A stretch of 64,000 bases of DNA from Chloroflexota bacterium (GCA_009840165.1 VXOG01000034.1:2455-66454), one strand, 5' to 3'; shown: positions 7,088 through 64,000, counted from the first letter of the stretch. Program-made: numbers and translations. The notes: generated from the letters alone by a model not told the origin.

Positions 7088-7110
7088 GGGGCAACCCTTG
7101 TGGTTGCCCC
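7088..7110 (+). terminator. GC-rich hairpin after the dioxygenase genes (REP-like, 'ggggc...gcccc' family)
   Basis: ggggcaacc-cttgt-ggttgcccc: 9-bp perfect stem. No clear U-tract. Confidence 0.45.
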
Positions 7111-10115: not shown

Positions 10116-11051
10116 ATGAGTCAGCAAACCAACGGCAACCGTATCCGGCTGCGGGTAGCCTTCCGCAATATGTTCTACACCACAATTTACGCGGCGGTGG
10201 AGGGTGGGTTCCTGGCCGCTGAGGGTCTGGATATCGACTTTTCCCATATCCCAACGGGCCAGTCCAGCACCGACCTGCTCAAGTCCGGCGACATCGACAT
10301 CACGCAGAGCGGCATCAGCCGCAGCTTCATGGATCTGGATGCTGGCAGCGATGCCCCGCCCCTGCATATCGCCGAGATCAACCAGCGGGACGGGTTCTTC
10401 CTGCTGTCCAAGCGTCCAACCGACGGTTGGACGTGGGCAGACCTGGTTGGCGCAACGCTGATCCCGGTGGGATTCACGCCGGTTCCTTACACCACGTTGC
10501 AGGCCGCAATGCGCTGGCACGGGGTAGATCCGACCAGCATCAACCTGATGGGCGGACTGTCCGCCGAGGAAATGCTGGCCCGCTTCCGCAACGGCGACGC
10601 CGACTATCTGCAAGTTCCATATCCTTTTGCCGGGCAGTTGATTGATGAAGGCGCGGGCCACCTGGCGGTTACGCTGGGCAATGAGAGCGGTTACGTGTGC
10701 TACAGCAGCTTTGCGGCCACGCCGGAGTATGTGGCGCAAAATCCCGACACCGTGCAGCGGTTCGTCAACGGCTACGCCCGTGCCCAACAGTGGGTTGCAG
10801 ACAATGAACCCGCGGCCGTGGCCGAATGTATCACGCCGGTTTTCCCCGAATACGACAAGTCCTTGTTGTCTGATGGGGTGCGCCGCTACAAGCAGGCCGG
10901 CGTGTGGGCCACCAATCCGATGATCGGCCGCGAAGGTTTTGACCGGATGCGCGACGCCCTGATCAACGGCGGTTTGGTGCGGGAACCCCATCCTTACGAG
11001 AACATCGTCACGCCAGGGTTTGCGGAGCGTGCGATGGCGCGTTTGGCGTAA
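10116..11051 (+). CDS. NMT1/THI5-like (NitT/TauT-type) substrate-binding-fold protein with no evident signal peptide
   Basis: 311 aa. ...FYTTIYAAVEGGFLAAEGLDIDF... typical of NMT1-like SBPs. The N-terminus is hydrophilic. Confidence 0.7.
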   Translation: MSQQTNGNRIRLRVAFRNMFYTTIYAAVEGGFLAAEGLDIDFSHIPTGQSSTDLLKSGDIDITQSGISRSFMDLDAGSDAPPLHIAEINQRDGFFLLSKRPTDGWTWADLVGATLIPVGFTPVPYTTLQAAMRWHGVDPTSINLMGGLSAEEMLARFRNGDADYLQVPYPFAGQLIDEGAGHLAVTLGNESGYVCYSSFAATPEYVAQNPDTVQRFVNGYARAQQWVADNEPAAVAECITPVFPEYDKSLLSDGVRRYKQAGVWATNPMIGREGFDRMRDALINGGLVREPHPYENIVTPGFAERAMARLA

Positions 11052-11085
11052 GCGGCATGGTCAGCGTATGATGTAATAGGTCGGA

Positions 11086-11340
11086 TTGTTCCATTTCGGC
11101 GAAAGCGCCCAGAGGTTAATGGTGAGCGCGGCACGGATCAGCATTCTCTTTTTCGGGTTGGTAGCGATCCTGCTCCTAGGGACTTGGGGCTGGACTGCAT
11201 TAACCAACGCAGTGTACAGAGCCGAAGCCGGTGACATCATAATCGGATTGACGGTGTACGGAGTGGCGAGTCTAGTCTTTGCCGTTGTTGCCGGGTACAC
11301 GTACTTGGTGATTTGGTTCAAGGACGATGCTCCGGACTGA
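11086..11340 (+). CDS. Hypothetical small membrane protein
   Basis: 84 aa with two hydrophobic helices. Lower GC than its surroundings. Confidence 0.4.
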   Translation: MFHFGESAQRLMVSAARISILFFGLVAILLLGTWGWTALTNAVYRAEAGDIIIGLTVYGVASLVFAVVAGYTYLVIWFKDDAPD

Positions 11341-11650
11341 AACAGCTGGGTCAAAGCGATCATATGACCGGAATGTCGGTTGGTGCCGTTTCTGGGTGGG
11401 CGTCAGCTTGGCGATTGCTACGCTGACGTTCACGTTTGCCGTAGAGCGAGTGTTCGACCCTGCTACGGCTCTTAGAGGTTCGGCAGAAACGGAGAGCATA
11501 GGTCAAGTCGAAGTGATCAGCGTCGTCAGTATTGGTGTTGTATTTACACTCATCCTACTCTCGGCCGTTTGTGCAGTTCTCTCAGCTCGGTTCAGGACTC
11601 TGTACCGTCGCGACGATGCCGCACTCTCTTACACTGAGGGGAAAAACTAG
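11327..11650 (+). CDS. Hypothetical small membrane protein
   Basis: 107 aa with two hydrophobic helices. Overlaps the previous ORF by 14 nt. Confidence 0.4.
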   Translation: MLRTETAGSKRSYDRNVGWCRFWVGVSLAIATLTFTFAVERVFDPATALRGSAETESIGQVEVISVVSIGVVFTLILLSAVCAVLSARFRTLYRRDDAALSYTEGKN

Positions 11651-11661
11651 GAGGCCACACA

Positions 11662-12414
11662 ATGAGGCTGGAAGGCAAAGTCGCAATCATCACCGGCGGC
11701 GCGCGCGGACAGGGCGCCACCGAAGCCAGGATGTTTGCCCAGGAAGGCGCGAAGGTGGTCATCGGCGACGTGCGGGACGAACTCGGTATGCAGGTGGAAG
11801 CCGAGATTCGCGAACTGGGCGGCGAGGCGGTTTACCTGCACCTGGACGTGACCAACGCCGATGACTGACAAAACGCCGTGGATACCGCCGAGCAGCGATT
11901 TGGCAAGGTGGACGTGCTGGTGAACAACGCCGCCATCGTGCTGCGGAAGGACATCGAGGAAACCACCTCCGAAGACTGGGACAACATCATGGACGTCAAC
12001 GCCAAGGGCGTATTCCTGGGCACCAGGGCCGTGATACCCGCCATGCGTCGGGCCGGCGGTGGCAGCATCATCAATATCTCGTCGATCAGCGGTTTGGTGT
12101 CCATCGGCCCGCCGGCATACATCGCCACCAAGGGCGCGGTCCGCCTGTTCACCAAGTCCACTGCTATCCAGTACGCTGCGGAAAACATCCGCGCCAACTC
12201 CATTCACCCGGGCGCCGTGGACACTGATATGCGCCGCGGCGGGCTGGAAAATCAAACGGCCGAAGAGATCCAGGAGCGACTGAGTCAGATTCCCTTGGGC
12301 CGCGTGGGCACCACCGAGGATATATCGTACGGGGCACTGCTCCTGGCGTCCGAAGAGTCCTCGTTCATGACGGGCAGCGAACTGGTCATCGACGGCGGCT
12401 ATACCGCGAAGTGA
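11662..12414 (+). pseudogene. Short-chain dehydrogenase/reductase (SDR) interrupted by a single in-frame TGA (11866-11868)
   Basis: TGGARGQG cofactor motif, NNAAI, S...Y..TK catalytic residues. Track ORFs 11662-11868 and 11878-12414 share one frame: ...LDVTNADD[TGA]QNAVDTAEQRFGKVDVLVNNAAI. Confidence 0.8.
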
Positions 12415-12424
12415 AGCGCAGATA

Positions 12425-12787
12425 ATGCTGAACATCGCCGAAGAATTGCTGCTCCTGCTTATGGACGAAGACAGCGGGGAATATACCCCGGTTCCGGAAC
12501 GCACGCTCGGCTACGCGCTGACCGGGGCGACGTTAATTGAGCTGGAACTACGGCATCGCATTGACGTAGGCCCCGAGGCGCTGGTTGTAGCCGACCCAAC
12601 GCCAGTGGGTGATGACCTGCTGGACCCGGTTCTGGCCGATATGGTGTCGGTGTCGCGTAACGCTGCCCACAATGCTGAGTTCTGGGTTCGGCGAATAGCG
12701 CAAAGTTCGGATGAACTACTGACCCGGGCACTTGCGGGGCTGGCCGCCCAAGGCATGATCGAAGCCGATGAAAATCGAAGCCGATGA
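12425..12787 (+). CDS. GPP34/GOLPH3-like domain, N-terminal fragment (truncated by a frameshift)
   Basis: MLNIAEELLLLLMDEDSGEY... is the characteristic GPP34-family start. The ORF ends a few codons after the 16-bp duplication. Confidence 0.65.
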   Translation: MLNIAEELLLLLMDEDSGEYTPVPERTLGYALTGATLIELELRHRIDVGPEALVVADPTPVGDDLLDPVLADMVSVSRNAAHNAEFWVRRIAQSSDELLTRALAGLAAQGMIEADENRSR

Positions 12788-12789
12788 AA
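12758..12789. repeat. Perfect 16-bp tandem duplication causing a frameshift
   Basis: atcgaagccgatgaaa at 12758-12773 and again at 12774-12789. Removing one copy joins the two ORFs as ...GMIEADESGFFFLS... Confidence 0.95.
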
Positions 12790-14456
12790 GCGGCTTCTTC
12801 TTCCTGTCTCGCCGCGCCACTCTTGCCCGTCGCCATGCAGCGACTCAAAGCCAGCAAGCGGAGGAAACCCGTCAACGTATATTGCAGGCGATTTTCAGCG
12901 ACATCATCCCGGATACCAGGGACATAGTTATCATCAGCCTGGCCCATGCCTGCGACATATTCCAGCGGATATTGCCGACTGACGAGTACGAAGAGGCACG
13001 CGAGCGGATCGAACTAATTTCCCGTCTGGAGATGATAAGCCGGTCGGTCATCGACGGCATTCGCAACTTGACGCTGGCGGAAGCCTACGCCCGGCGTCGT
13101 GGCATACAGGAAAAGGGCGGCGGCTGGCCGCGTGCATCGGGGCATTTGCCCATCATCGGCCACGTGCTGCAATTCCGCAAAACGATAAACGGATTTCTAA
13201 CGGAACAGTACCGAAACCTGGGGCCGGTGTTTGAAGTATCGTTACTCGGCAAAAAGTGGCTGGTGCTGGCCGGGCCGGAAGCGAATCGCTTTCTAATGCG
13301 AGAAGGCCGGGATTGCCTGCATAACGATCATGTGGCGTGGCAGGGGTTCGCCCAACAATTCGGTGGTACCAGGTCCCTGGCCGGGATGGACGGCCCGGAG
13401 CACGTGCGTCTGCGGCGGCTCATGCGGGACGGCTACTCCCGCGGTCAGCTGGTGAAAGATATACCTCAGGCCGTGGCCATAGTAGAGAACGAGATGCGGC
13501 AATGGCCGGAAAATCGTCCAGTTTCAGTTTATCCCAGCGTACAGCGCATGGTCGTGGACCAACTGGGCACATTGATGTCCGGCATATCTCCCAAGGAACA
13601 CGTTGACGATATACTAACCTTTATCCACGCGCTGGAAATGGTCTATATGGCCAGGATGTACCCGAAGTTTATGGCATATACGCCGAAGGTTCGGCGAGCG
13701 CGCCGGCGTGTCGAAGCGCTCTTTGAGCAAGTGCTCGCCGCCCACGAGCCGACGCTGCGCTCCGAGGAAACGCCAAATCTCTCCGACATCCTGATGGAAA
13801 CGAGGCGTTCGGCGCCCGACTTTATCACGGATACCGACCTGTTCGTTGACTCCATAGGGCCGTATCTGGCCGGGGCGGACACCTCATCCTCAGCAACCTC
13901 CCTCATGCTCTACTCGCTGCTGAAGCATCCCGACGTGCTGGAGCGTGTGCGCGATGAGGCCGATCACCTGTTTGCCGATGGCGCGCCAACGGCGACCGGC
14001 CTGAATGATCTGCCGGTCACCCAGCGGGCGATTCAAGAAACGCTGCGACTGCATCCCATCGTCCCGGTAATGGTGCGCACGGTGGCGAACTCCTTTGAAT
14101 TCGCCGGCTACTGGATTCCCGCCGGGACGTCGGTGTGGGTGGCCATGCCGGTTTCGCATCATTTACCCGAGCTGTACCCTGATCCGGAGCGTTTTGACAT
14201 TGACCGCTTTTTGCCGGAGCGTCGGGAGCACGGGCAGCCGGGAGCTTACACGCCGTTCGGATTCGGGCCGCACAGTTGCCTCGGCCAGGGAGCGGCGCAG
14301 GCCCAAATGACCCTCATCATCGCAACAATCCTGCATCGAGCGGACATCGTCCTGGACCCGCCCGATTACCAGATGAAATTGGATTCCATACCCGTACCAT
14401 CACCGAACCGCAGTTTCAAAATCCGGCTGACGCAATGGCGTCAGAAGGGAGGATAG
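12768..14456 (+). CDS. Cytochrome P450 preceded by the continuation of the GPP34-like domain
   Basis: ExxR (ETLRL) and heme loop FGFGPHSCLGQG. The first roughly 95 aa are not P450-like and continue the upstream GPP34-like ORF. Confidence 0.85.
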   Translation: MKIEADESGFFFLSRRATLARRHAATQSQQAEETRQRILQAIFSDIIPDTRDIVIISLAHACDIFQRILPTDEYEEARERIELISRLEMISRSVIDGIRNLTLAEAYARRRGIQEKGGGWPRASGHLPIIGHVLQFRKTINGFLTEQYRNLGPVFEVSLLGKKWLVLAGPEANRFLMREGRDCLHNDHVAWQGFAQQFGGTRSLAGMDGPEHVRLRRLMRDGYSRGQLVKDIPQAVAIVENEMRQWPENRPVSVYPSVQRMVVDQLGTLMSGISPKEHVDDILTFIHALEMVYMARMYPKFMAYTPKVRRARRRVEALFEQVLAAHEPTLRSEETPNLSDILMETRRSAPDFITDTDLFVDSIGPYLAGADTSSSATSLMLYSLLKHPDVLERVRDEADHLFADGAPTATGLNDLPVTQRAIQETLRLHPIVPVMVRTVANSFEFAGYWIPAGTSVWVAMPVSHHLPELYPDPERFDIDRFLPERREHGQPGAYTPFGFGPHSCLGQGAAQAQMTLIIATILHRADIVLDPPDYQMKLDSIPVPSPNRSFKIRLTQWRQKGG

Positions 14457-31381: not shown

Positions 31382-32683
31382 ATGCGCATTCTGCTGATTG
31401 CCACCAATCGCCACAACCGGGTCATGAGCCGTATGCGCGCCCAGCCCATCCCGATCGGACTCGCCTACGTCGCCGGACATATCGACCGCTCACGCCACGA
31501 GGTCAAGTTGGTTGACTTGATGTTCGCCAGCGAGAACTATCTGGATGAAATCGAGCAAACGGTGCGGGACTTCAACCCCGAACTGGTCGGAATCTCCATA
31601 CGCAACCTGAGCAATCACAGCTACGTGGACCCGCAGTGGCAGTTGCCCATCACAAAGAGCGTGATCGAGCGCGTCCGTTCCGTTTCCGATGCGACCATCG
31701 TGTGCGGAGGGCCGGCGTTCAGTATCATGCCCACGCAGGTCTTTGAATACGTGCAGCCCGACTTTGGCTTGGCGGGCGACGCCGGTGAAAGTTTCGCCGA
31801 CCTCGCCGGCCGTATCGAAATTGGCGAGCCCGACTACCGGGGCATGACCGGACTGCTGTACCGCGAAAACGGCGAGTTGGTTTACAACGGGATGCGCTGC
31901 TCGTCCGATTTCATCGAACGTCCAAGCCTTGACGACCTGGACATGCCCAAATACGCCAAGGCGGGATTTGGCGTCAGCGTCCTCACCAAGCTGGGCGGAT
32001 TTTACTATCCCACCTCCGCCGACGACATCCGCACGCCCGAAGGCGCCTGGCGCGTCATTCGCCCCATCGACGAGGTTGTTGAGGAAGTCGCGGAGGTAAC
32101 CGAGCGGTACGGGCTGAAGAAGATATTCTTCGTGGACAACTGCTTCAACGTACCTCTGGAGCACGCCAAAGAGTTGTGCAACGCGCTCATGGAAGCCGAG
32201 GTCAAGGTACGCTGGAACACCTGCCTGGCGCCCTACGCCTGCGACGCCGAACTGATCGGCTTGATGAAGCAGGCGGGTTGCGGGCTGGTGATGATGGGCG
32301 GAACTCGCGGCGGCGACCCCCACGAAGGCGACAACGACACCTCACGGTACTCATCCCTGAAGGAAACCACCGACCTGTGCGAAGCCGGCGACCTGCACTA
32401 CACCATCTCGCAGCAATTCGGCGAGCCAGGCGAAACCCGCCAGTCCGTCGAGAACAAGTTGGAGTTCCTGCGTGGCCTGAAGCCGTCGCTGGCCAACCTC
32501 CGCGTCGGCGTCAGCGTCATGCCGGGCACCGACGTGGCAACGCGCTGCATTGATGAAGGCATCATCGCCGACGAGTCCGAATTGATCGCGCCAACCTTCT
32601 ACATGGCGGAAGCAGTGCGCCCCTGGCTCGTCGATTACCTCCGCGAACTGGTGGACGCCAACCCCCGCTGGAACCTGATGTAG
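31382..32683 (+). CDS. B12-binding-domain / radical-SAM-like protein lacking the CxxxCxxC cluster motif
   Basis: MRILLIATNRHN...PIGLAYVAGHI...LVGISIRN...IVCGGP is the class-B radical-SAM N-terminal domain. Where RGCxxxCxxC is expected the sequence reads TKLGGFYYPTSADD. None of the 9 Cys form CxxxCxxC. Confidence 0.8.
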   Translation: MRILLIATNRHNRVMSRMRAQPIPIGLAYVAGHIDRSRHEVKLVDLMFASENYLDEIEQTVRDFNPELVGISIRNLSNHSYVDPQWQLPITKSVIERVRSVSDATIVCGGPAFSIMPTQVFEYVQPDFGLAGDAGESFADLAGRIEIGEPDYRGMTGLLYRENGELVYNGMRCSSDFIERPSLDDLDMPKYAKAGFGVSVLTKLGGFYYPTSADDIRTPEGAWRVIRPIDEVVEEVAEVTERYGLKKIFFVDNCFNVPLEHAKELCNALMEAEVKVRWNTCLAPYACDAELIGLMKQAGCGLVMMGGTRGGDPHEGDNDTSRYSSLKETTDLCEAGDLHYTISQQFGEPGETRQSVENKLEFLRGLKPSLANLRVGVSVMPGTDVATRCIDEGIIADESELIAPTFYMAEAVRPWLVDYLRELVDANPRWNLM

Positions 32684-32696
32684 AGCATAGGTTGCC

Positions 32697-32864
32697 ATGC
32701 ACAAGTCGCTAATTCTTGCCGGCATATTGGTAGTAGTTGCTGCTGCCGTCAGCTACCCATTCTGGCCCGATACCGTGACCGCGGGGCCGCTGGGAGCAAG
32801 CCTTTTGATGGGTGGATCCGGGGTTGCGATTATTGCCGCAGGCGCTTACGCGATTGCAAAATGA
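32697..32864 (+). CDS. Hypothetical 55-aa membrane protein (below the ORF-track size cutoff)
   Basis: ATG 32697, 14 nt after the previous stop: MHKSLILAGILVVVAAAVSYPFWPD...GGSGVAIIAAGAYAIAK. Its stop overlaps the next start (ATGA). Confidence 0.4.
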   Translation: MHKSLILAGILVVVAAAVSYPFWPDTVTAGPLGASLLMGGSGVAIIAAGAYAIAK

Positions 32865-33169
32865 TGCGAAATTGGCTGCTAGCAAGCATCCTGATCGCTG
32901 CCTTCCCAGTGCTGACTTGGCAATTGCTCTTGAGAGGTTACGCCGACGTTTTGGCTGGCCTGCTCGCAGTGCTCATGGCCACATCCGGCATTTGGCTATC
33001 CGCAAAGGGTATGACCCAACTGAAACAGCATGAAACCGAACCCATTTCGGATAGGGCGCTGGAAACCGCTTACCGCTACCGCAACGCTGGTTTAGCTTTT
33101 GGCCTGACCGGTTCCGGTCCACTGGTATTATCATGGGAAACATTCCTGGGCCGTTTTATCAGGGCTTGA
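32861..33169 (+). CDS. Hypothetical 102-aa membrane protein
   Basis: Two to three hydrophobic helices. Translationally coupled to the preceding sORF. Confidence 0.5.
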   Translation: MMRNWLLASILIAAFPVLTWQLLLRGYADVLAGLLAVLMATSGIWLSAKGMTQLKQHETEPISDRALETAYRYRNAGLAFGLTGSGPLVLSWETFLGRFIRA

Positions 33170-33197
33170 CCATTTCAGAGTGCAAAGGAAAACGACG

Positions 33198-34649
33198 ATG
33201 ACCTTGACCAACCAGGCGTTGGCAGACGCCGGCAGAATTACAGTCACGGATTCCGAAACCGCGCGCATCGCTCATCTGCTGCGACGCGCCGGCTTTGCCC
33301 CCACTCGCGCCGAAATCGACCGGGCGGTTGCCCAAGGCTACGAAGCCACCGTTGAGGAGCTGCTGCATCCCGAGCTACAGCCGGATCTGGAGATCGAAGA
33401 CCTCATCCGTCGCTACCACACCGACCAGAACAGCCTGATGCTGCTGGAGAGTAGCCAGGGCTATTGGCTGTATCGCATCATCAATTCCCGCCGCCCGCTC
33501 GAAGAGAAAATGGCCCTGTTCTGGCACGGCCTGTTCGCCACCGCCTACGGCAAGCTCAACCACGCCAAAGCCGTGGTCAACCAGACCCATACTTTCCGGC
33601 GGCACGGGCTGGCCAAGTTTGCCGACATCCTTTTGGAGCTCTCCAGCGACCCGGCTATGATCTTCTGGCTGGACAACAAGGACAACCATAAGGACGCCCC
33701 CAACGAGAACTACGGGCGCGAATTGCTCGAACTGTTCTCCATGGGGATCGGCAACTACACCGAGGACGACGTGAAGGCCGCCGCCCGGTCGTTCACCGGG
33801 TGGACGATTGACAACGCGGAGTACATGAGCATCCGCGCCAGCCGGGACTCCTTCTGGCCGTATGGACGCATTGACTGGCAGTTCCGCTACCGTGACGACG
33901 ACCATGACGATACGGAAAAAACTTTCCTTGGCCACACCGGAACCTTCAACGGACAGGAAGTTATCGACATCATCGTTCGTCACCCCGCGACTGCTCACTA
34001 CATCGCAAGCAAGCTCTACAACTTCTTCGTGTCCGACCGACCGGACGAAGACGCTACCGGCATCCTGGCCAATGAATTCGCCCGCAGCGGAGGTGATATA
34101 CGGTCGGTCATGCGCTGTTTGCTCCTGTCCGATTTCTTCTCGGACGAGTCAGTCCGCCTGGGACGGGTCAAAAGCCCCGCCGAACTGGTTGGAGGCACGG
34201 CCCGTCTGGCCGGCAGCCACCGCACGCCGGAATGGACCATTTGCAACCTGGCGATGGACGTCAACTTCATGGGCCAGGAAATCCTCAACCCACCCACCGT
34301 TGAAGGTTGGCACACCGGCGTGGAATGGATTGATACCGGCAACCTGGTGGAGCGAATCAACGCCGCCGGTGCGGAGATGCGCGATATGACCCGGCCGGGG
34401 GTGTCCGCAATTGTGAATCGAGTGCTGTCAGCCGGGGATGTCCTGTCGCCACGTGAACTGACGGAAGCCTGCCTCGACGCGGTGGGGATGTTTGAGGTCT
34501 CGGAGACCACCCTGGACAGTCTCATCTCGCTGGCCACGCCATGGGGAGAAATTCGTTTCGACCAGGATGACACCGTCGCCTGCTCGAAAGAACGGATAGT
34601 TGAAATGTTGCAGCTAATCGTCGCCTCCAGGGAGTACCAACTCGCATGA
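33198..34649 (+). CDS. DUF1800 domain protein
   Basis: ...AHLLRRAGFAPTRAEID..., MALFWHGLFAT, YGRELLELFSMG, PPTVEGWHTG: hallmark DUF1800 blocks. No signal peptide. ATG 33198 preferred over GTG 33180. Confidence 0.8.
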   Translation: MTLTNQALADAGRITVTDSETARIAHLLRRAGFAPTRAEIDRAVAQGYEATVEELLHPELQPDLEIEDLIRRYHTDQNSLMLLESSQGYWLYRIINSRRPLEEKMALFWHGLFATAYGKLNHAKAVVNQTHTFRRHGLAKFADILLELSSDPAMIFWLDNKDNHKDAPNENYGRELLELFSMGIGNYTEDDVKAAARSFTGWTIDNAEYMSIRASRDSFWPYGRIDWQFRYRDDDHDDTEKTFLGHTGTFNGQEVIDIIVRHPATAHYIASKLYNFFVSDRPDEDATGILANEFARSGGDIRSVMRCLLLSDFFSDESVRLGRVKSPAELVGGTARLAGSHRTPEWTICNLAMDVNFMGQEILNPPTVEGWHTGVEWIDTGNLVERINAAGAEMRDMTRPGVSAIVNRVLSAGDVLSPRELTEACLDAVGMFEVSETTLDSLISLATPWGEIRFDQDDTVACSKERIVEMLQLIVASREYQLA

Positions 34650-35668
34650 CCACAACGACAGCGAGATTCGAGTACAGCCACACGGTAGGCTTTCTCGCCT
34701 ACCGGGGACGCGGCTTCATCCATCCCATCGCCATCACGCTGGGGCACGACGGCGTGATGTATGTCCTGAATCGGGGCGGCCCCGAATCCGTCGGACGCCT
34801 GGAACACAAGCGCGTGTGCGTCTGCACAGTTGACGAGGGCTATATCGGCGAATGGGGAACCGGCGGAACCGAAGATGGGCAGTTCTGGTGGCCCAGCGAC
34901 ATCGCCCGCGCTGCCGACGGCCGAATCTTCGTTACCGACGAGGCGTTGCAACGAGTCAATATATTCGACCCGACCGGGAATTTTATCCGACACTGGGGCG
35001 ATGTTGGCGACTCGCCTGGTCAATTCAACCGACCCGCTGGGATAACTGCGGCCCCCGACGGAACGCTGCTGATCAGCGACGGCCTGAATCATCGCATCCA
35101 GCGATTCACCACCGAAGGAGATTTCTTGGACGGCTGGGGCCAGTATGGCGCCCAATCCGGACAGTTCAACACTCCGTGGGGTCTGACGTGCGATGCCGAT
35201 GGAAACGTCTTCGTCGCGGACTGGCGCAACGACCGCGTCCAGGCGTTCACCCCCAACGGCCGCTTTATCGGCCAGTGGGGAACCAGCGGAGATGGCAAAA
35301 GCCAGCTGAATCGTCCCGCATCGGTAGCGGTGGACGCAGAGGGACATATCTACGTCGCCGACTGGGGCAACGAGCGGGTGCAGATTTTCGCGCCGGATGG
35401 GGAAGTGGCCGGCATCCTGCTGGGCGACGCCACGGTATCCACGTGGGCAGCAGATTACCTGGCGGCAAACCCCGACGAGCAGCGGGCCAGGACTGAAGCG
35501 AACCTCGCGCCGGCGGTGGACCCGTGGCGCGACCATCACCGGGAGACTTCCGCCAGGATCGAATCGCGGTTCTGGGGCCCGACCTCCGTGGCCGTAGATT
35601 CGGAGGGCCGCATCTACGTGGTGGACTCATGCCGCCACCGAGTGCAGATTTATCGCAAGTCGGTTTAA
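34646..35668 (+). CDS. NHL-repeat six-bladed beta-propeller protein, no signal peptide
   Basis: Repeated ...G.FN.P.G(I/L/V)..D..G...V.D..N.R(V/I)Q.F... units, about six in total. ATGA overlap with the DUF1800 stop. Confidence 0.85.
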   Translation: MTTTTARFEYSHTVGFLAYRGRGFIHPIAITLGHDGVMYVLNRGGPESVGRLEHKRVCVCTVDEGYIGEWGTGGTEDGQFWWPSDIARAADGRIFVTDEALQRVNIFDPTGNFIRHWGDVGDSPGQFNRPAGITAAPDGTLLISDGLNHRIQRFTTEGDFLDGWGQYGAQSGQFNTPWGLTCDADGNVFVADWRNDRVQAFTPNGRFIGQWGTSGDGKSQLNRPASVAVDAEGHIYVADWGNERVQIFAPDGEVAGILLGDATVSTWAADYLAANPDEQRARTEANLAPAVDPWRDHHRETSARIESRFWGPTSVAVDSEGRIYVVDSCRHRVQIYRKSV

Positions 35669-35690: not shown

Positions 35691-35731
35691 CACTTTGTAG
35701 GGGCGGGTTTGAAACCCGCCCCTACAAAGTG
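35691..35731. terminator. 41-nt perfect palindrome between convergent genes (bidirectional terminator / REP-like)
   Basis: cactttgtaggggcgggttt-g-aaacccgcccctacaaagtg. Confidence 0.7.
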
Positions 35732-48206: not shown

Positions 48207-48234
48207 GTAGGGGCGAATAATTATTCGCCCCTAC
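48207..48234. repeat. 28-nt perfect palindrome (REP-like / terminator)
   Basis: gtaggggcgaataa|ttattcgcccctac. Half-copy at 10072-10094. Confidence 0.85.
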
Positions 48235-49292: not shown

Positions 49293-49314
49293 GGGGCGAC
49301 CTAAAGGTCGCCCC
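49293..49314 (+). terminator. Hairpin after the peroxiredoxin gene
   Basis: ggggcgacc-taaa-ggtcgcccc, between convergent genes. Confidence 0.6.
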
Positions 49315-54544: not shown

Positions 54545-54574
54545 CGACACCGACCGGCACAGCGCAAAAAGCAG

Positions 54575-54601
54575 CAGGGGCGGGTCTGAGACCCGCCCCT
54601 G
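54575..54601. terminator. Palindromic hairpin between convergent genes ('ggggcggg...cccgcccc' family)
   Basis: caggggcgggtc-tga-gacccgcccctg. Confidence 0.65.
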
Positions 54602-54624
54602 CGTAAATTTGTTAAACCGGCTGA

Positions 54625-61549: not shown

Positions 61550-61692
61550 TATAAACTGATAACGGTTCGGCCGATTATTCGGGATAACCCATGCCCGGAT
61601 ATTGCGGAAAACAGGGCCGTAGGCTATATTCTTGGCACGAAAAATCACCCCATCAGGACTATCGAAGTTCGGGAGTAAAAAAGGAGGAACCA

Positions 61693-63117
61693 ATGGCAGG
61701 AAGCAACGACATCGCATTGATGGCTCACCTTCTGCGCCGGGCCGGCTTCAGCGCCAGCCGCGACGAGATTGAAGCCGCCGCTGCGAAAGGCTACGACACC
61801 GTGGTGGAGGAACTCTTGAATCCGGGCGAGTCGTCCGGCGTTGAAGACGACCTTATGCTGCGCTACCACCCGACGTATAACCACGCCGGGGCCATCGAGA
61901 TCAACATCCAGAACTGGGTGTATCGCATGGTGAACACCGAGTACCAGCTCAAGGAAAAGATGGCGCTGTTCTGGCACATGATCTTCTGCGCGGGCCACTC
62001 AAAGATCGACTCCGGCGAAGAAATGGGCCGGATGATCCAGATGTTCCGGGACAAGGGCATGGGCAACTTCCAGGAACTGCTGCTGGAACTGTCCACCAGC
62101 CCCGCGATGATGTACTACCTGGACAACACGGAGAGCCACAAGGTCGCCATCAACGAGAACTATGGCCGCGAACTGCTGGAACTGTTCTCCATGGGCGTCG
62201 GCATGAACGAAGATTTCAACTACAGCGAGGATGACGTGAAGGCGTGCGCCCGCGCGTTCACCGGCTGGAACATCGCGCCGCCGTACCCTCCGTTCCCCTA
62301 TGGACGCAGCCCGTGGGAGTTCCGGTATGATCCGGCCGACCACGACCAGGACGACAAGACCTTCCTGGGCCAGACCGGCAACTGGAACGGCGATGACATC
62401 CTGAACATGATCGCCGCGAACCAGGCCACCGCCCGGTTCATCTCGCGCCACATGTACAACTTCTTCGTGGCCGACGAGGTGCCCGTTCCCAGCTGGCGGC
62501 AGACCCCGCCGAAGGACGAGGGCCTGCTGGCGGACTTGGAGCAGACCTACTTCGACAGCGGCTACGACATCACCGCGATGCTGAACACGCTGTTCAACTC
62601 CGAGTCTTTCAAGAATGCCCAGTACGCCAAGGTGAAGAACCCGGCCGAGATGGTGGCGGGCACCCTGCGCATGGTGGGCGACCACCGGGACGAGATCAAG
62701 CCCGGCATGTTCGAGCTGAGCCAGGAGCCCAAGTACATGGGCATGGACCTGATGAACCCGCCGACGGTTGAGGGCTGGCACACCGGCCACGAGTGGATCG
62801 ACTCGGGCACCCTGGTAGAGCGGATCAACTTCGCCGCGGACTACCTGGGCCGCACGGAACTCCCCGGCGTCCAGAGCATGATCACCAGGCTGATGGCCCA
62901 GGGCGACAGCCTGAGCCCCGAGCAGTTCGTGGACTCCTGCGCCGACCTGGTGGGCTGCCTGAACCTGACCGAGGACACCCGGGATCAGTTGATTGCCCAC
63001 GCCGGCCGCGGCGGCAACCTGACCCACGGTTCCGATGCCGAGCGCGCGGAGTTCACCCGCCGCTCCGGTGAGATGTTCCAGATCATCGCGTCCACCTCGG
63101 AGTTCCAGTTCGAGTAA
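61693..63117 (+). CDS. DUF1800 domain protein (second paralogue)
   Basis: AAAAGGAGGA RBS. MAGSNDIALMAHLLRRAGFSASRDEIE..., MALFWHMIF, YGRELLELFSMG, PPTVEGWHTG. Confidence 0.85.
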   Translation: MAGSNDIALMAHLLRRAGFSASRDEIEAAAAKGYDTVVEELLNPGESSGVEDDLMLRYHPTYNHAGAIEINIQNWVYRMVNTEYQLKEKMALFWHMIFCAGHSKIDSGEEMGRMIQMFRDKGMGNFQELLLELSTSPAMMYYLDNTESHKVAINENYGRELLELFSMGVGMNEDFNYSEDDVKACARAFTGWNIAPPYPPFPYGRSPWEFRYDPADHDQDDKTFLGQTGNWNGDDILNMIAANQATARFISRHMYNFFVADEVPVPSWRQTPPKDEGLLADLEQTYFDSGYDITAMLNTLFNSESFKNAQYAKVKNPAEMVAGTLRMVGDHRDEIKPGMFELSQEPKYMGMDLMNPPTVEGWHTGHEWIDSGTLVERINFAADYLGRTELPGVQSMITRLMAQGDSLSPEQFVDSCADLVGCLNLTEDTRDQLIAHAGRGGNLTHGSDAERAEFTRRSGEMFQIIASTSEFQFE

Positions 63118-63216
63118 TCGGAAAGCAACCACAACGCAGCCGGGAGACAGCCTTTCAGTTGGCCGCTCCCGGCCGGCAATCACGAACATCAAGCAAGCAC
63201 AATGGAGGACTATCAA

Positions 63217-64000
63217 ATGGTCTCTACCAACAAAGACAACGTTCTGGTGGTGCTTTCCCTCTCCGGCGGGAACGACGGCCTGAACACTGTCATCCCTTAC
63301 AATGACGGTCACTACCGTGACTATCGCCCGGCGCTCGGCGTCCCCGCCGAAGCCGTCCTGGACCTGAACGGCGAGATTGGCCTGCACCCCACCATGGGTC
63401 CGCTGAAGAAGTACTGGGACGAGGGCAAGCTCGCCATCTTCCTGGGCATCGGCTACGCCAATCCTTCCTACAGCCACTTCCGCAGCATGGACATCTGGCA
63501 CACCTGCGAGCCGGACACCATCGGCACCGAGGGCTGGCTAGGCCAGGTCATCCACGAGCTGGATCCCAATGCTGAAGGCCAGGGAATCACCGGCGTGAAC
63601 TTCGGCCGCGGCCTCCCGCGCGCCCTGGCCAAGGAAGGCGTTCCGGTCGCCTCCGTGGGCAACCTTGAGACCTACGGCCTGCTCACCGGCATCGAGGGCG
63701 ATGACCAGCGCGCCGAGGCTCTGGACCTGTTCAGCAAGATCTACGCGCCCACCGTGGGCCAGGGCTTCGTGAGCGACTACCTGCGCTCCACCGGCACCTA
63801 CGCCCGGATCGGCGCCGACATTCTGGCCACCGCGCCGCCGAAGTACACCTCCAACGTGGAGTACTCCGCGACCACCGTCGGCCAGTACATGAAGAACATC
63901 GCGCAGACCCACCTGGCCGACCTGGGCACCCGCGTGCTGTTCACCACCAGCCCCTACAACGGCTTCGACACCCACGCCAACCAGGCGTCCGACCACGCCC
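63217..64000 (+). CDS. DUF1501 domain protein (sulfatase/alkaline-phosphatase superfamily), 3' end outside the window
   Basis: Open frame from ATG 63217 to the window end: ...VLVVLSLSGGNDGLNTVIPY...GYANPSYSHFRSMDIWHT...FDTHANQ, hallmark DUF1501 blocks. No twin-arginine signal at the N-terminus. Confidence 0.85.
   Translation, partial: MVSTNKDNVLVVLSLSGGNDGLNTVIPYNDGHYRDYRPALGVPAEAVLDLNGEIGLHPTMGPLKKYWDEGKLAIFLGIGYANPSYSHFRSMDIWHTCEPDTIGTEGWLGQVIHELDPNAEGQGITGVNFGRGLPRALAKEGVPVASVGNLETYGLLTGIEGDDQRAEALDLFSKIYAPTVGQGFVSDYLRSTGTYARIGADILATAPPKYTSNVEYSATTVGQYMKNIAQTHLADLGTRVLFTTSPYNGFDTHANQASDHA

Follow-up and report, generated by a model that had tools for sequence, protein, structure and literature searches.

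The five genes at positions 31382-35668 of a 64,000-nucleotide (nt) stretch of Chloroflexota DNA are real, but most probably form three independent units that lie side by side by lineage-specific juxtaposition in one SAR202/Dehalococcoidia branch, an explanation to which, taken as a whole, we assign a probability of about 0.6. The whole stretch is referred to here as the window, and the coordinates of all features are counted from its first letter. The original prediction for this DNA had regarded the five open reading frames (ORFs) as one uncharacterised system. According to our model, the first unit would be the gene of a stand-alone enzyme built on the scaffold of class-B radical S-adenosylmethionine (SAM) enzymes (protein 1), the second a cassette of two genes for small membrane proteins, dispensable and repeatedly lost or exchanged, and the third a gene pair coding for a DUF1800 protein and an NHL propeller, which would move together with a convergent CMD/RraA/OpuAC block. 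The close spacing within the clade would allow co-transcription of the units, with the transcript probably ending at an ordinary gene-end hairpin.

All five ORFs are encoded on the plus strand: protein 1 (31382-32683, 433 amino acids (aa)), small ORF 1 (32697-32864, 55 aa), small ORF 2 (32861-33169, 102 aa), the DUF1800 protein, here termed protein 4 (33198-34649, 483 aa), and the NHL-repeat β-propeller, protein 5 (34646-35668, 340 aa). The intergenic distances are, in order, 13, -4, 28 and -4 nt, and both 4-nt overlaps, between the two small ORFs and between the DUF1800 and NHL genes, read ATGA. Ends, strand and the last three distances agree with the original prediction; its value of 14 nt for the first gap has to be corrected to 13. 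Hydropathy analysis identifies two hydrophobic segments in each of the small proteins and zero in proteins 1, 4 and 5.

Gene order in related genomes

A tblastn comparison of the locus, extended by three genes on either side, covered 80 related loci, among them 52 close loci (84-98% identity for protein 1), L050-L052 (67%) and 25 distant loci (60-64%). The closest are Dehalococcoidia/Chloroflexota metagenome-assembled genomes, part of them labelled SAR202, with protein 1 identities of up to 98%. In 52 of the 52 close Dehalococcoidia/SAR202 loci the whole stretch is collinear from three genes upstream through three genes downstream, in the order luciferase-like oxidoreductase, TlpA-like redoxin, AI-2E transporter, protein 1, DUF1800, NHL, CMD-family protein, RraA-like protein and OpuAC. 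Since this collinearity spans unrelated flanking genes on both strands, it reflects gene order at the level of the clade and provides no evidence for a unit.

At 60-64% identity the picture is different. In the 25 SAR202 loci of this tier the protein 1 gene is unlinked from DUF1800-NHL and mostly flanked by opposite-strand genes, either in a neighbourhood with DUF1385, L21/L27, DAK2/DegV, RecG, HerA-like, P450 or CoA-transferase genes, or next to amidohydrolases and an aldolase/SDR fusion. On one 3.08-Mb contig (L086 and L061), about 0.94 Mb separate a protein 1 homologue (0.72-0.73 Mb) from DUF1800-NHL, whose DUF1800 orthologue P0343 is found at 1.657-1.678 Mb. L086 and L087 retain the order DUF1800, NHL, CMD, RraA, OpuAC, preceded by different upstream genes. 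Homologues of protein 1 on contigs labelled Alphaproteobacteria or Nitrospinae are accompanied neither by DUF1800/NHL nor by a common partner, and four more divergent relatives that likewise lack the cysteine triad described below have no DUF1800/NHL and no partner in common. The locus labelled Alphaproteobacteria (L081) and that labelled Nitrospinae (L083) share their protein 1 neighbours, two AXE1 esterases upstream and BtpA nearby, which suggests mis-binning or recent transfer and calls for caution regarding the apparent multi-phylum spread of the family.

These data bear directly on the view that the five genes are one operon-encoded system, comprising a B12-dependent enzyme, membrane proteins, a DUF1800 protein and an NHL propeller. 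Such a system would fit the tight spacing and the two ATGA overlaps in the window, the gap of merely 6-110 nt between protein 1 and DUF1800 in relatives devoid of the small ORFs, the distance of 0.1-3 kb between protein 1 and DUF1800-NHL in the 67% tier, and a terminator scan that showed no convincing internal terminator. It is at odds with the 25 distant loci and the separation by about 0.94 Mb on one contig, with the equally strict collinearity of unrelated flanking genes, with the absence of the small-ORF cassette from 34 of the 52 close relatives, with the divergent Cys-less relatives that share no common partner, and with junction insertions in various genomes (opposite-strand genes, a methyltransferase-like gene pair, a transposase and a phosphofructokinase-like gene). 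When an operon is judged by co-occurrence and adjacency beyond close genomes, DUF1800-NHL alone qualifies, whereas protein 1 and the small ORFs fail. The synteny data have thus already largely refuted the single system, which we regard as very improbable. Absence of conserved synteny in homologues was the outcome that the original prediction had itself named as refuting, and for protein 1 the neighbourhood survey returned exactly this.

Among the loci of the 67% tier, a phosphofructokinase-like gene is located between the protein 1 homologue and DUF1800 in L050 (8390-10948) and L052 (8372-9562), and L050 harbours an insertion sequence (IS)-type transposase at this junction as well.

The cassette of two small ORFs

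Small ORF 1 and small ORF 2, each coding for two hydrophobic segments, make up, in this order, an optional cassette. Across the 52 close loci the distance between the protein 1 and DUF1800 genes is bimodal, amounting to 540-600 nt where both small ORFs are present (18/52) and to 6-110 nt where they are not (34/52). The cassette-less loci include the nearest relatives of the window, L065 (98% protein 1 identity) and L001 (97%). The window carries the cassette at 32684-33197 and these two loci do not, and the short intergenic sequences of cassette-less genomes contain no recognisable remnant of it, which implies that it was lost very recently or exchanged by recombination. The cassette distribution corresponds to at least 11 gains or losses on a tree built from proteins 1, 4 and 5.

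In the cassette-bearing loci both ORFs are mostly intact despite low overall identity, and a few copies are frameshifted. Small ORF 1 is characterized by the conserved motif YPFWPD and small ORF 2, in its conserved C-terminal part, by SAKGM..LK...AYRYRNAG.ALG.TGSG.L.FSW..FL.RFI. Because they are conserved as ORFs with shared motifs, the small ORFs are to be considered genes; their dismissal as non-coding artefacts is ruled out by the conservation of frame and motif in most insert-bearing loci. Pfam and NCBIfam contain no meaningful family for either protein. The family of the 102-aa protein comprises 99 protein clusters, and the two distant matches whose context was examined occupy the same position; the protein itself has a counterpart of 100% identity, named 'hypothetical protein [Chloroflexi bacterium]', which is encoded on a contig of 157 kb. 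A mobile element was considered as the source of the small ORFs and rejected, as the short gaps of insert-less loci show neither remnant nor recognisable repeat. A 61-aa ORF behind the L083 homologue of protein 1 was likewise discarded as a counterpart of small ORF 1, being acidic and not hydrophobic.

A class-B radical SAM scaffold devoid of cluster ligands

Protein 1 consists of an N-terminal cobalamin-binding Rossmann domain and a radical-SAM-type partial TIM barrel without [4Fe-4S] ligands. Pfam assigns the B12-binding domain PF02310 to residues 22-141 (58.4 bits, cutoff 32.1), whereas the match to Radical_SAM (PF04055) remains at 18.5 bits under its cutoff of 29.5. As originally predicted, none of the nine cysteines forms a CxxxCxxC motif, and residues 200-215, the former cluster-binding loop (31979-32026, plus strand), read VLTKLGGFYYPTSADD. 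This loop was located by a hidden Markov model (HMM) alignment to the tryptophan 2-C-methyltransferase TsrM (Protein Data Bank (PDB) entries 6wte and 6wtf), the best solved match of protein 1 by both profile (E = 3e-26 for 6wte) and fold (TM-score normalized to the query (TMq) 0.68-0.76). TsrM Cys227, Cys231 and Cys234 align with Phe207, Thr211 and Asp214 of protein 1, and TsrM Glu273 aligns with Cys254, a position occupied by Gly in most family members; the numbering was checked and reproduces Glu273 as published (PMC8992657). The motifs LTK.G, D..FN and HAK are retained, as is Arg74, which is aligned with TsrM Arg69 after strand 3, within the part of protein 1 that corresponds to the cobalamin domain of TsrM.

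The AlphaFold2 model of protein 1 supports this assignment. After TsrM, its next fold matches are AprD4, CysS, TokK, OxsB and MgmA; for this set including TsrM the Foldseek probability is 1.00 with TMq values of 0.57-0.76, and the model displays the partial (β/α)6 TIM barrel.

The family around protein 1 is large. A word-indexed search returned more than 1000 protein clusters at E ≤ 0.001, the best 120 of which are about 431 aa long and more than 60% identical; database names are limited to 'cobalamin-dependent protein' or the like. In an alignment of 23 members the mean column identity is 77%, CxxxCxxC occurs in 0 of 23, and the triad stretch instead reads AGFG...LTKL..F.YP. When 1.84 billion representatives were searched exhaustively with the profile, a single dominant family representative emerged at 755 bits, followed by a few more divergent Cys-less representatives at 494, 445, 354 and 338 bits and then by a continuum of true class-B enzymes; of the 127 out-group representatives of full length, 120 have CxxxCxxC at the equivalent site. 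As judged from these alignments, the loss of the Cys triad, which the original prediction had proposed to check in this way, is a family trait and not a peculiarity of the window gene. Protein 1 thus belongs to a large, unnamed and very conserved family on the class-B radical SAM scaffold, with more than 60% identity across SAR202 Chloroflexota. Compared with Cys-bearing relatives, the family is distinguished by five extra residues within its invariant N-terminal loop, by the change of GEGE to GDAGE, and by the replacement of the strand motif DSGS(E) by GGTRGGD.

Four cysteines, Cys266, Cys287, Cys300 and Cys333, are invariant throughout the Cys-less family. In the alignment segments inspected, Cys287 and Cys333 appear family-specific, and Cys300 is found in Cys-bearing relatives too. 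Loops at residues 10-22, 77-90 and 205-224 are invariant as well. Gene context did not yield a function for protein 1, as its neighbours vary by lineage and are housekeeping or generic catabolic genes. Our literature search found no paper on the Cys-less class-B family or on the NCBIfam family TIGR04072, its top match there; together with the family searches, it agrees with the earlier statement that the combination has no described function, none being on record for any part of the five-gene stretch.

The DUF1800-NHL pair

Protein 4 is soluble, mostly α-helical, and matches DUF1800 (PF08811) over profile positions 1-419 of 419 with 348.9 bits (cutoff 26.1). HMM searches, which the original prediction had suggested for each protein, hence agree with its description of the locus: B12-binding domain in protein 1, DUF1800 in protein 4, Pfam NHL repeats in protein 5 and no family for the small proteins. 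The window contains a second DUF1800 gene (61591-63117) whose product is 43% identical to protein 4, and the ORF behind it (about 63200-64000, starting MEDYQMVSTNKDNVLVVLSLSGGNDG) is truncated by the window end. A canonical DUF1800/DUF1501 pair had been reported at this site; the DUF1800 part holds, whereas the match of the truncated ORF to DUF1501 is weak and below cutoff.

DUF1800 and NHL genes are adjacent in all 59 loci having both. They are separated by -4 to +29 nt in 45 of them, and in 12 of the 59 by 0.2-2.6 kb with unrelated genes inserted. The predicted coupling of DUF1800 through ATGA to an NHL propeller, and not to DUF1501, is hence seen in the window and has its counterpart in the NHL neighbour of all these loci. 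The gene pairing of DUF1800 and NHL is conserved within SAR202; since the downstream block moves along with it, a functional pairing is likely rather than certain.

Proteins 4 and 5 have no signal peptide, as had been noted earlier. This cannot be counted as a distinguishing feature of the pair, because the second DUF1800 protein and its DUF1501-like neighbour also lack a signal or Tat leader, and the idea of a special, signal-less DUF1800 was consequently abandoned. DUF1501 proteins are often described as Tat-exported.

The AlphaFold2 model of the DUF1800 protein has a predicted local distance difference test (pLDDT) score of 67.5 and a predicted TM-score of 0.73. Neither profile nor fold comparison identified a relative in the PDB (best Foldseek E = 0.78), and an attempt to derive the DUF1800 function from structure was given up for want of a usable match to this model. 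Our literature search found nothing on DUF1800 function. The NHL protein matches the NHL domains of TRIM71, Thin and TRIM2 in the PDB with E-values down to 5e-64. It is a generic six-bladed propeller, and its likeness to TRIM proteins or to ScyF says nothing about function.

The genes inserted between DUF1800 and NHL are of several kinds. A recurrent opposite-strand gene of about 195-199 aa is located exactly between the two in L015, L019, L026, L029/L030, L046 and L048; the N-terminus of its product is conserved (..NE..FFDEAGIYISQ.RF..), and the middle part contains hydrophobic stretches. The 2.6-kb insert of L040 (about 10351-12945) comprises an apparent DNA methyltransferase and a partner gene, resembling a restriction-modification arrangement. 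The junction holds a DinB-like gene in L052 and a gene for a 303-aa membrane protein in L053.

The gene-end hairpin

The NHL and CMD-family genes converge on a perfect palindrome of 41 nt (35691-35731, no strand assigned), which was described correctly in the original prediction: two arms of 20 nt are fully complementary around one central base, with a minimum free energy of -47 kcal/mol and z = -6. The hairpin is stable and conserved in position, but has no T-run on either strand, and the terminator scan made no call. Roughly half of the relatives have, between NHL and CMD, a hairpin whose outer arms are unchanged and whose inner stem differs in a compensatory manner, remaining self-complementary. 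Five perfect GC-rich hairpins of the (GTA)GGGGCG...CGCCCC(TAC) class, all lacking U-tracts, occur in the window (7088-7110, 35700-35722, 48207-48234, 49293-49314 and 54574-54602), at or near gene 3' ends according to the ORF list. The palindrome had been taken to close one string of five genes; with four more members of its class in the window, it is instead a real but ordinary gene-end element of a genome-wide class. This class could represent lineage-specific terminators or elements resembling repetitive extragenic palindromes (REP).

An Rfam scan of the window detected neither a cobalamin riboswitch nor any other family at gathering thresholds. An origin from a defence system or phage was dismissed, as PADLOC and PHROGs gave no meaningful match.

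Discussion

What protein 1 might catalyse can be outlined from its alignment to TsrM. The [4Fe-4S]/SAM radical machinery would be gone from the protein, with the cobalamin domain remaining; there, cobalamin is predicted to be bound base-off with Arg74 placed under the corrin like Arg69 of TsrM. In TsrM, cobalamin is obstructed at its lower face by Arg69, a residue favouring cob(I)alamin and nucleophilic chemistry (PMC13331322; PMC8992657), and the enzyme demonstrates that methylation on this scaffold is feasible without radicals (PMC8992657). For protein 1 we infer a cobalamin-dependent enzyme that would work without radicals, through polar cob(I)/methyl-cob(III)alamin chemistry, and would most likely be a methyltransferase. 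The mean column identity of 77% and the many invariant polar residues argue for a constrained active site. In a wider formulation, protein 1 might represent an undescribed class of cobalamin-dependent enzymes that has dispensed with the Fe-S cluster and relies on B12 chemistry alone, be it polar methyl transfer or a radical reaction of the adenosylcobalamin (AdoCbl) type; we put this forward tentatively, at somewhat less than even odds.

Loss of the catalytic cluster could also mark a protein that no longer catalyses at all, such as a carrier, sensor or chaperone that binds cobalamin, or a pseudoenzyme with a structural role, and the stand-alone gene without pathway partners and with neither riboswitch nor regulator nearby fits this idea. 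Conservation, however, is very high in both the barrel and the B12 domain, dozens of polar residues being invariant in loops that line the active site of the homologues, and this exceeds the needs of simple cofactor binding; a non-catalytic protein 1 is therefore unlikely. Alternatively, protein 1 could draw its radicals from AdoCbl and perform a rearrangement or H-abstraction without SAM or cluster, in an architecture like that of AdoCbl-dependent mutases. The combination of a B12 Rossmann domain with a barrel, the radical chemistry of the parent lineage and the altered DSGS(E) strand motif, by which SAM may have ceased to be a co-substrate, are compatible with such a mechanism. Yet the DxHxxG His-on motif is not present in protein 1, no AdoCbl enzyme is included in its top sequence and fold matches, and in TsrM and QueG an Arg under the corrin steers cobalamin towards four-coordinate cob(I)/cob(II) states and nucleophilic reactions (PMC13331322). 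We consider AdoCbl-derived radicals distinctly unlikely.

Several points weigh against three independent units with a methyl-transferring protein 1 among them. In the 67% tier, L050-L052, protein 1 and DUF1800-NHL stay within 0.1-3 kb of each other, and a loose functional link between them may exist in a larger clade that includes this tier. The adjacency of DUF1800 and NHL could itself be block synteny, because CMD/RraA/OpuAC travels along. The model of protein 1 is of moderate quality (pLDDT 70.9) and worst in the invariant loops. Arg74 is inherited and not diagnostic, since the Cys-bearing neighbours of the family have it too, and with GGTRGGD in place of DSGS(E), SAM may no longer bind to protein 1. 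Both cobalamin binding and activity of protein 1 are predictions from its sequence.

If the proposed explanation is true, the Cys-less family is a natural experiment on which parts of the class-B scaffold B12 chemistry needs, with the ligands removed and the cobalamin domain kept. TsrM provides the precedent of non-radical methylation, yet still carries its cluster, the role of which is unclear. A further consequence would be the addition of a cobalamin-dependent function to SAR202, a group that is abundant in the deep ocean and noted for the degradation of recalcitrant organic matter and for its place in marine B12 economies. In any case, the unnamed family to which protein 1 belongs merits biochemical work. 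Two warnings for annotation follow: collinearity at the level of a clade, combined with ATGA overlaps, can be misread as a 'system', and Cys-less proteins of the protein 1 type are misnamed when called radical SAM enzymes. For DUF1800, a domain without structural relative, the pair with NHL constitutes a second, cytoplasmic context.

Comparison with known systems

TsrM and protein 1 are alike in that a B12 Rossmann domain is followed by a radical-SAM barrel. They share about 20% identity, and protein 1 is shorter by about 130 residues. TsrM coordinates its [4Fe-4S] cluster by CX3CX2C and caps it with Glu273, a ligand of the unique iron (PMC8992657), whereas in the protein 1 family all four ligand positions are replaced (F, T, D and C/G). 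With 76 bits against a cutoff of 500, protein 1 falls outside the TsrM family TIGR04428.

Closer in sequence is TIGR04072, the 'lipid biosynthesis B12-binding/radical SAM protein' of ladderane-cluster type, which is the top NCBIfam match of protein 1 and covers it at nearly full length. The score of 194 bits, like the 188 bits of the family representative P0121, stays below the cutoff of 360. On this profile the Cys-less proteins tested score 145-194 bits and the nearest Cys-bearing relatives 289-352 bits, which identifies the TIGR04072 type as the parent branch of protein 1. From this type protein 1 differs by the lost triad, by GDAGE in place of GEGE and GGTRGGD in place of DSGS(E), and by a gene context devoid of lipid-biosynthesis genes.

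The best NCBIfam match of the NHL protein is ScyF (NF035926), at 160.5 bits below the cutoff of 350; compared with ScyF, it has no PEP-CTERM, signal peptide, hydrophobic N- or C-terminal segment or other domain. Protein 4, finally, shares the full-length DUF1800 domain with the DUF1800/DUF1501 pairs (PF08811/PF07394), but its downstream partner, in the window and in 59 of 59 related loci, is instead an NHL propeller.

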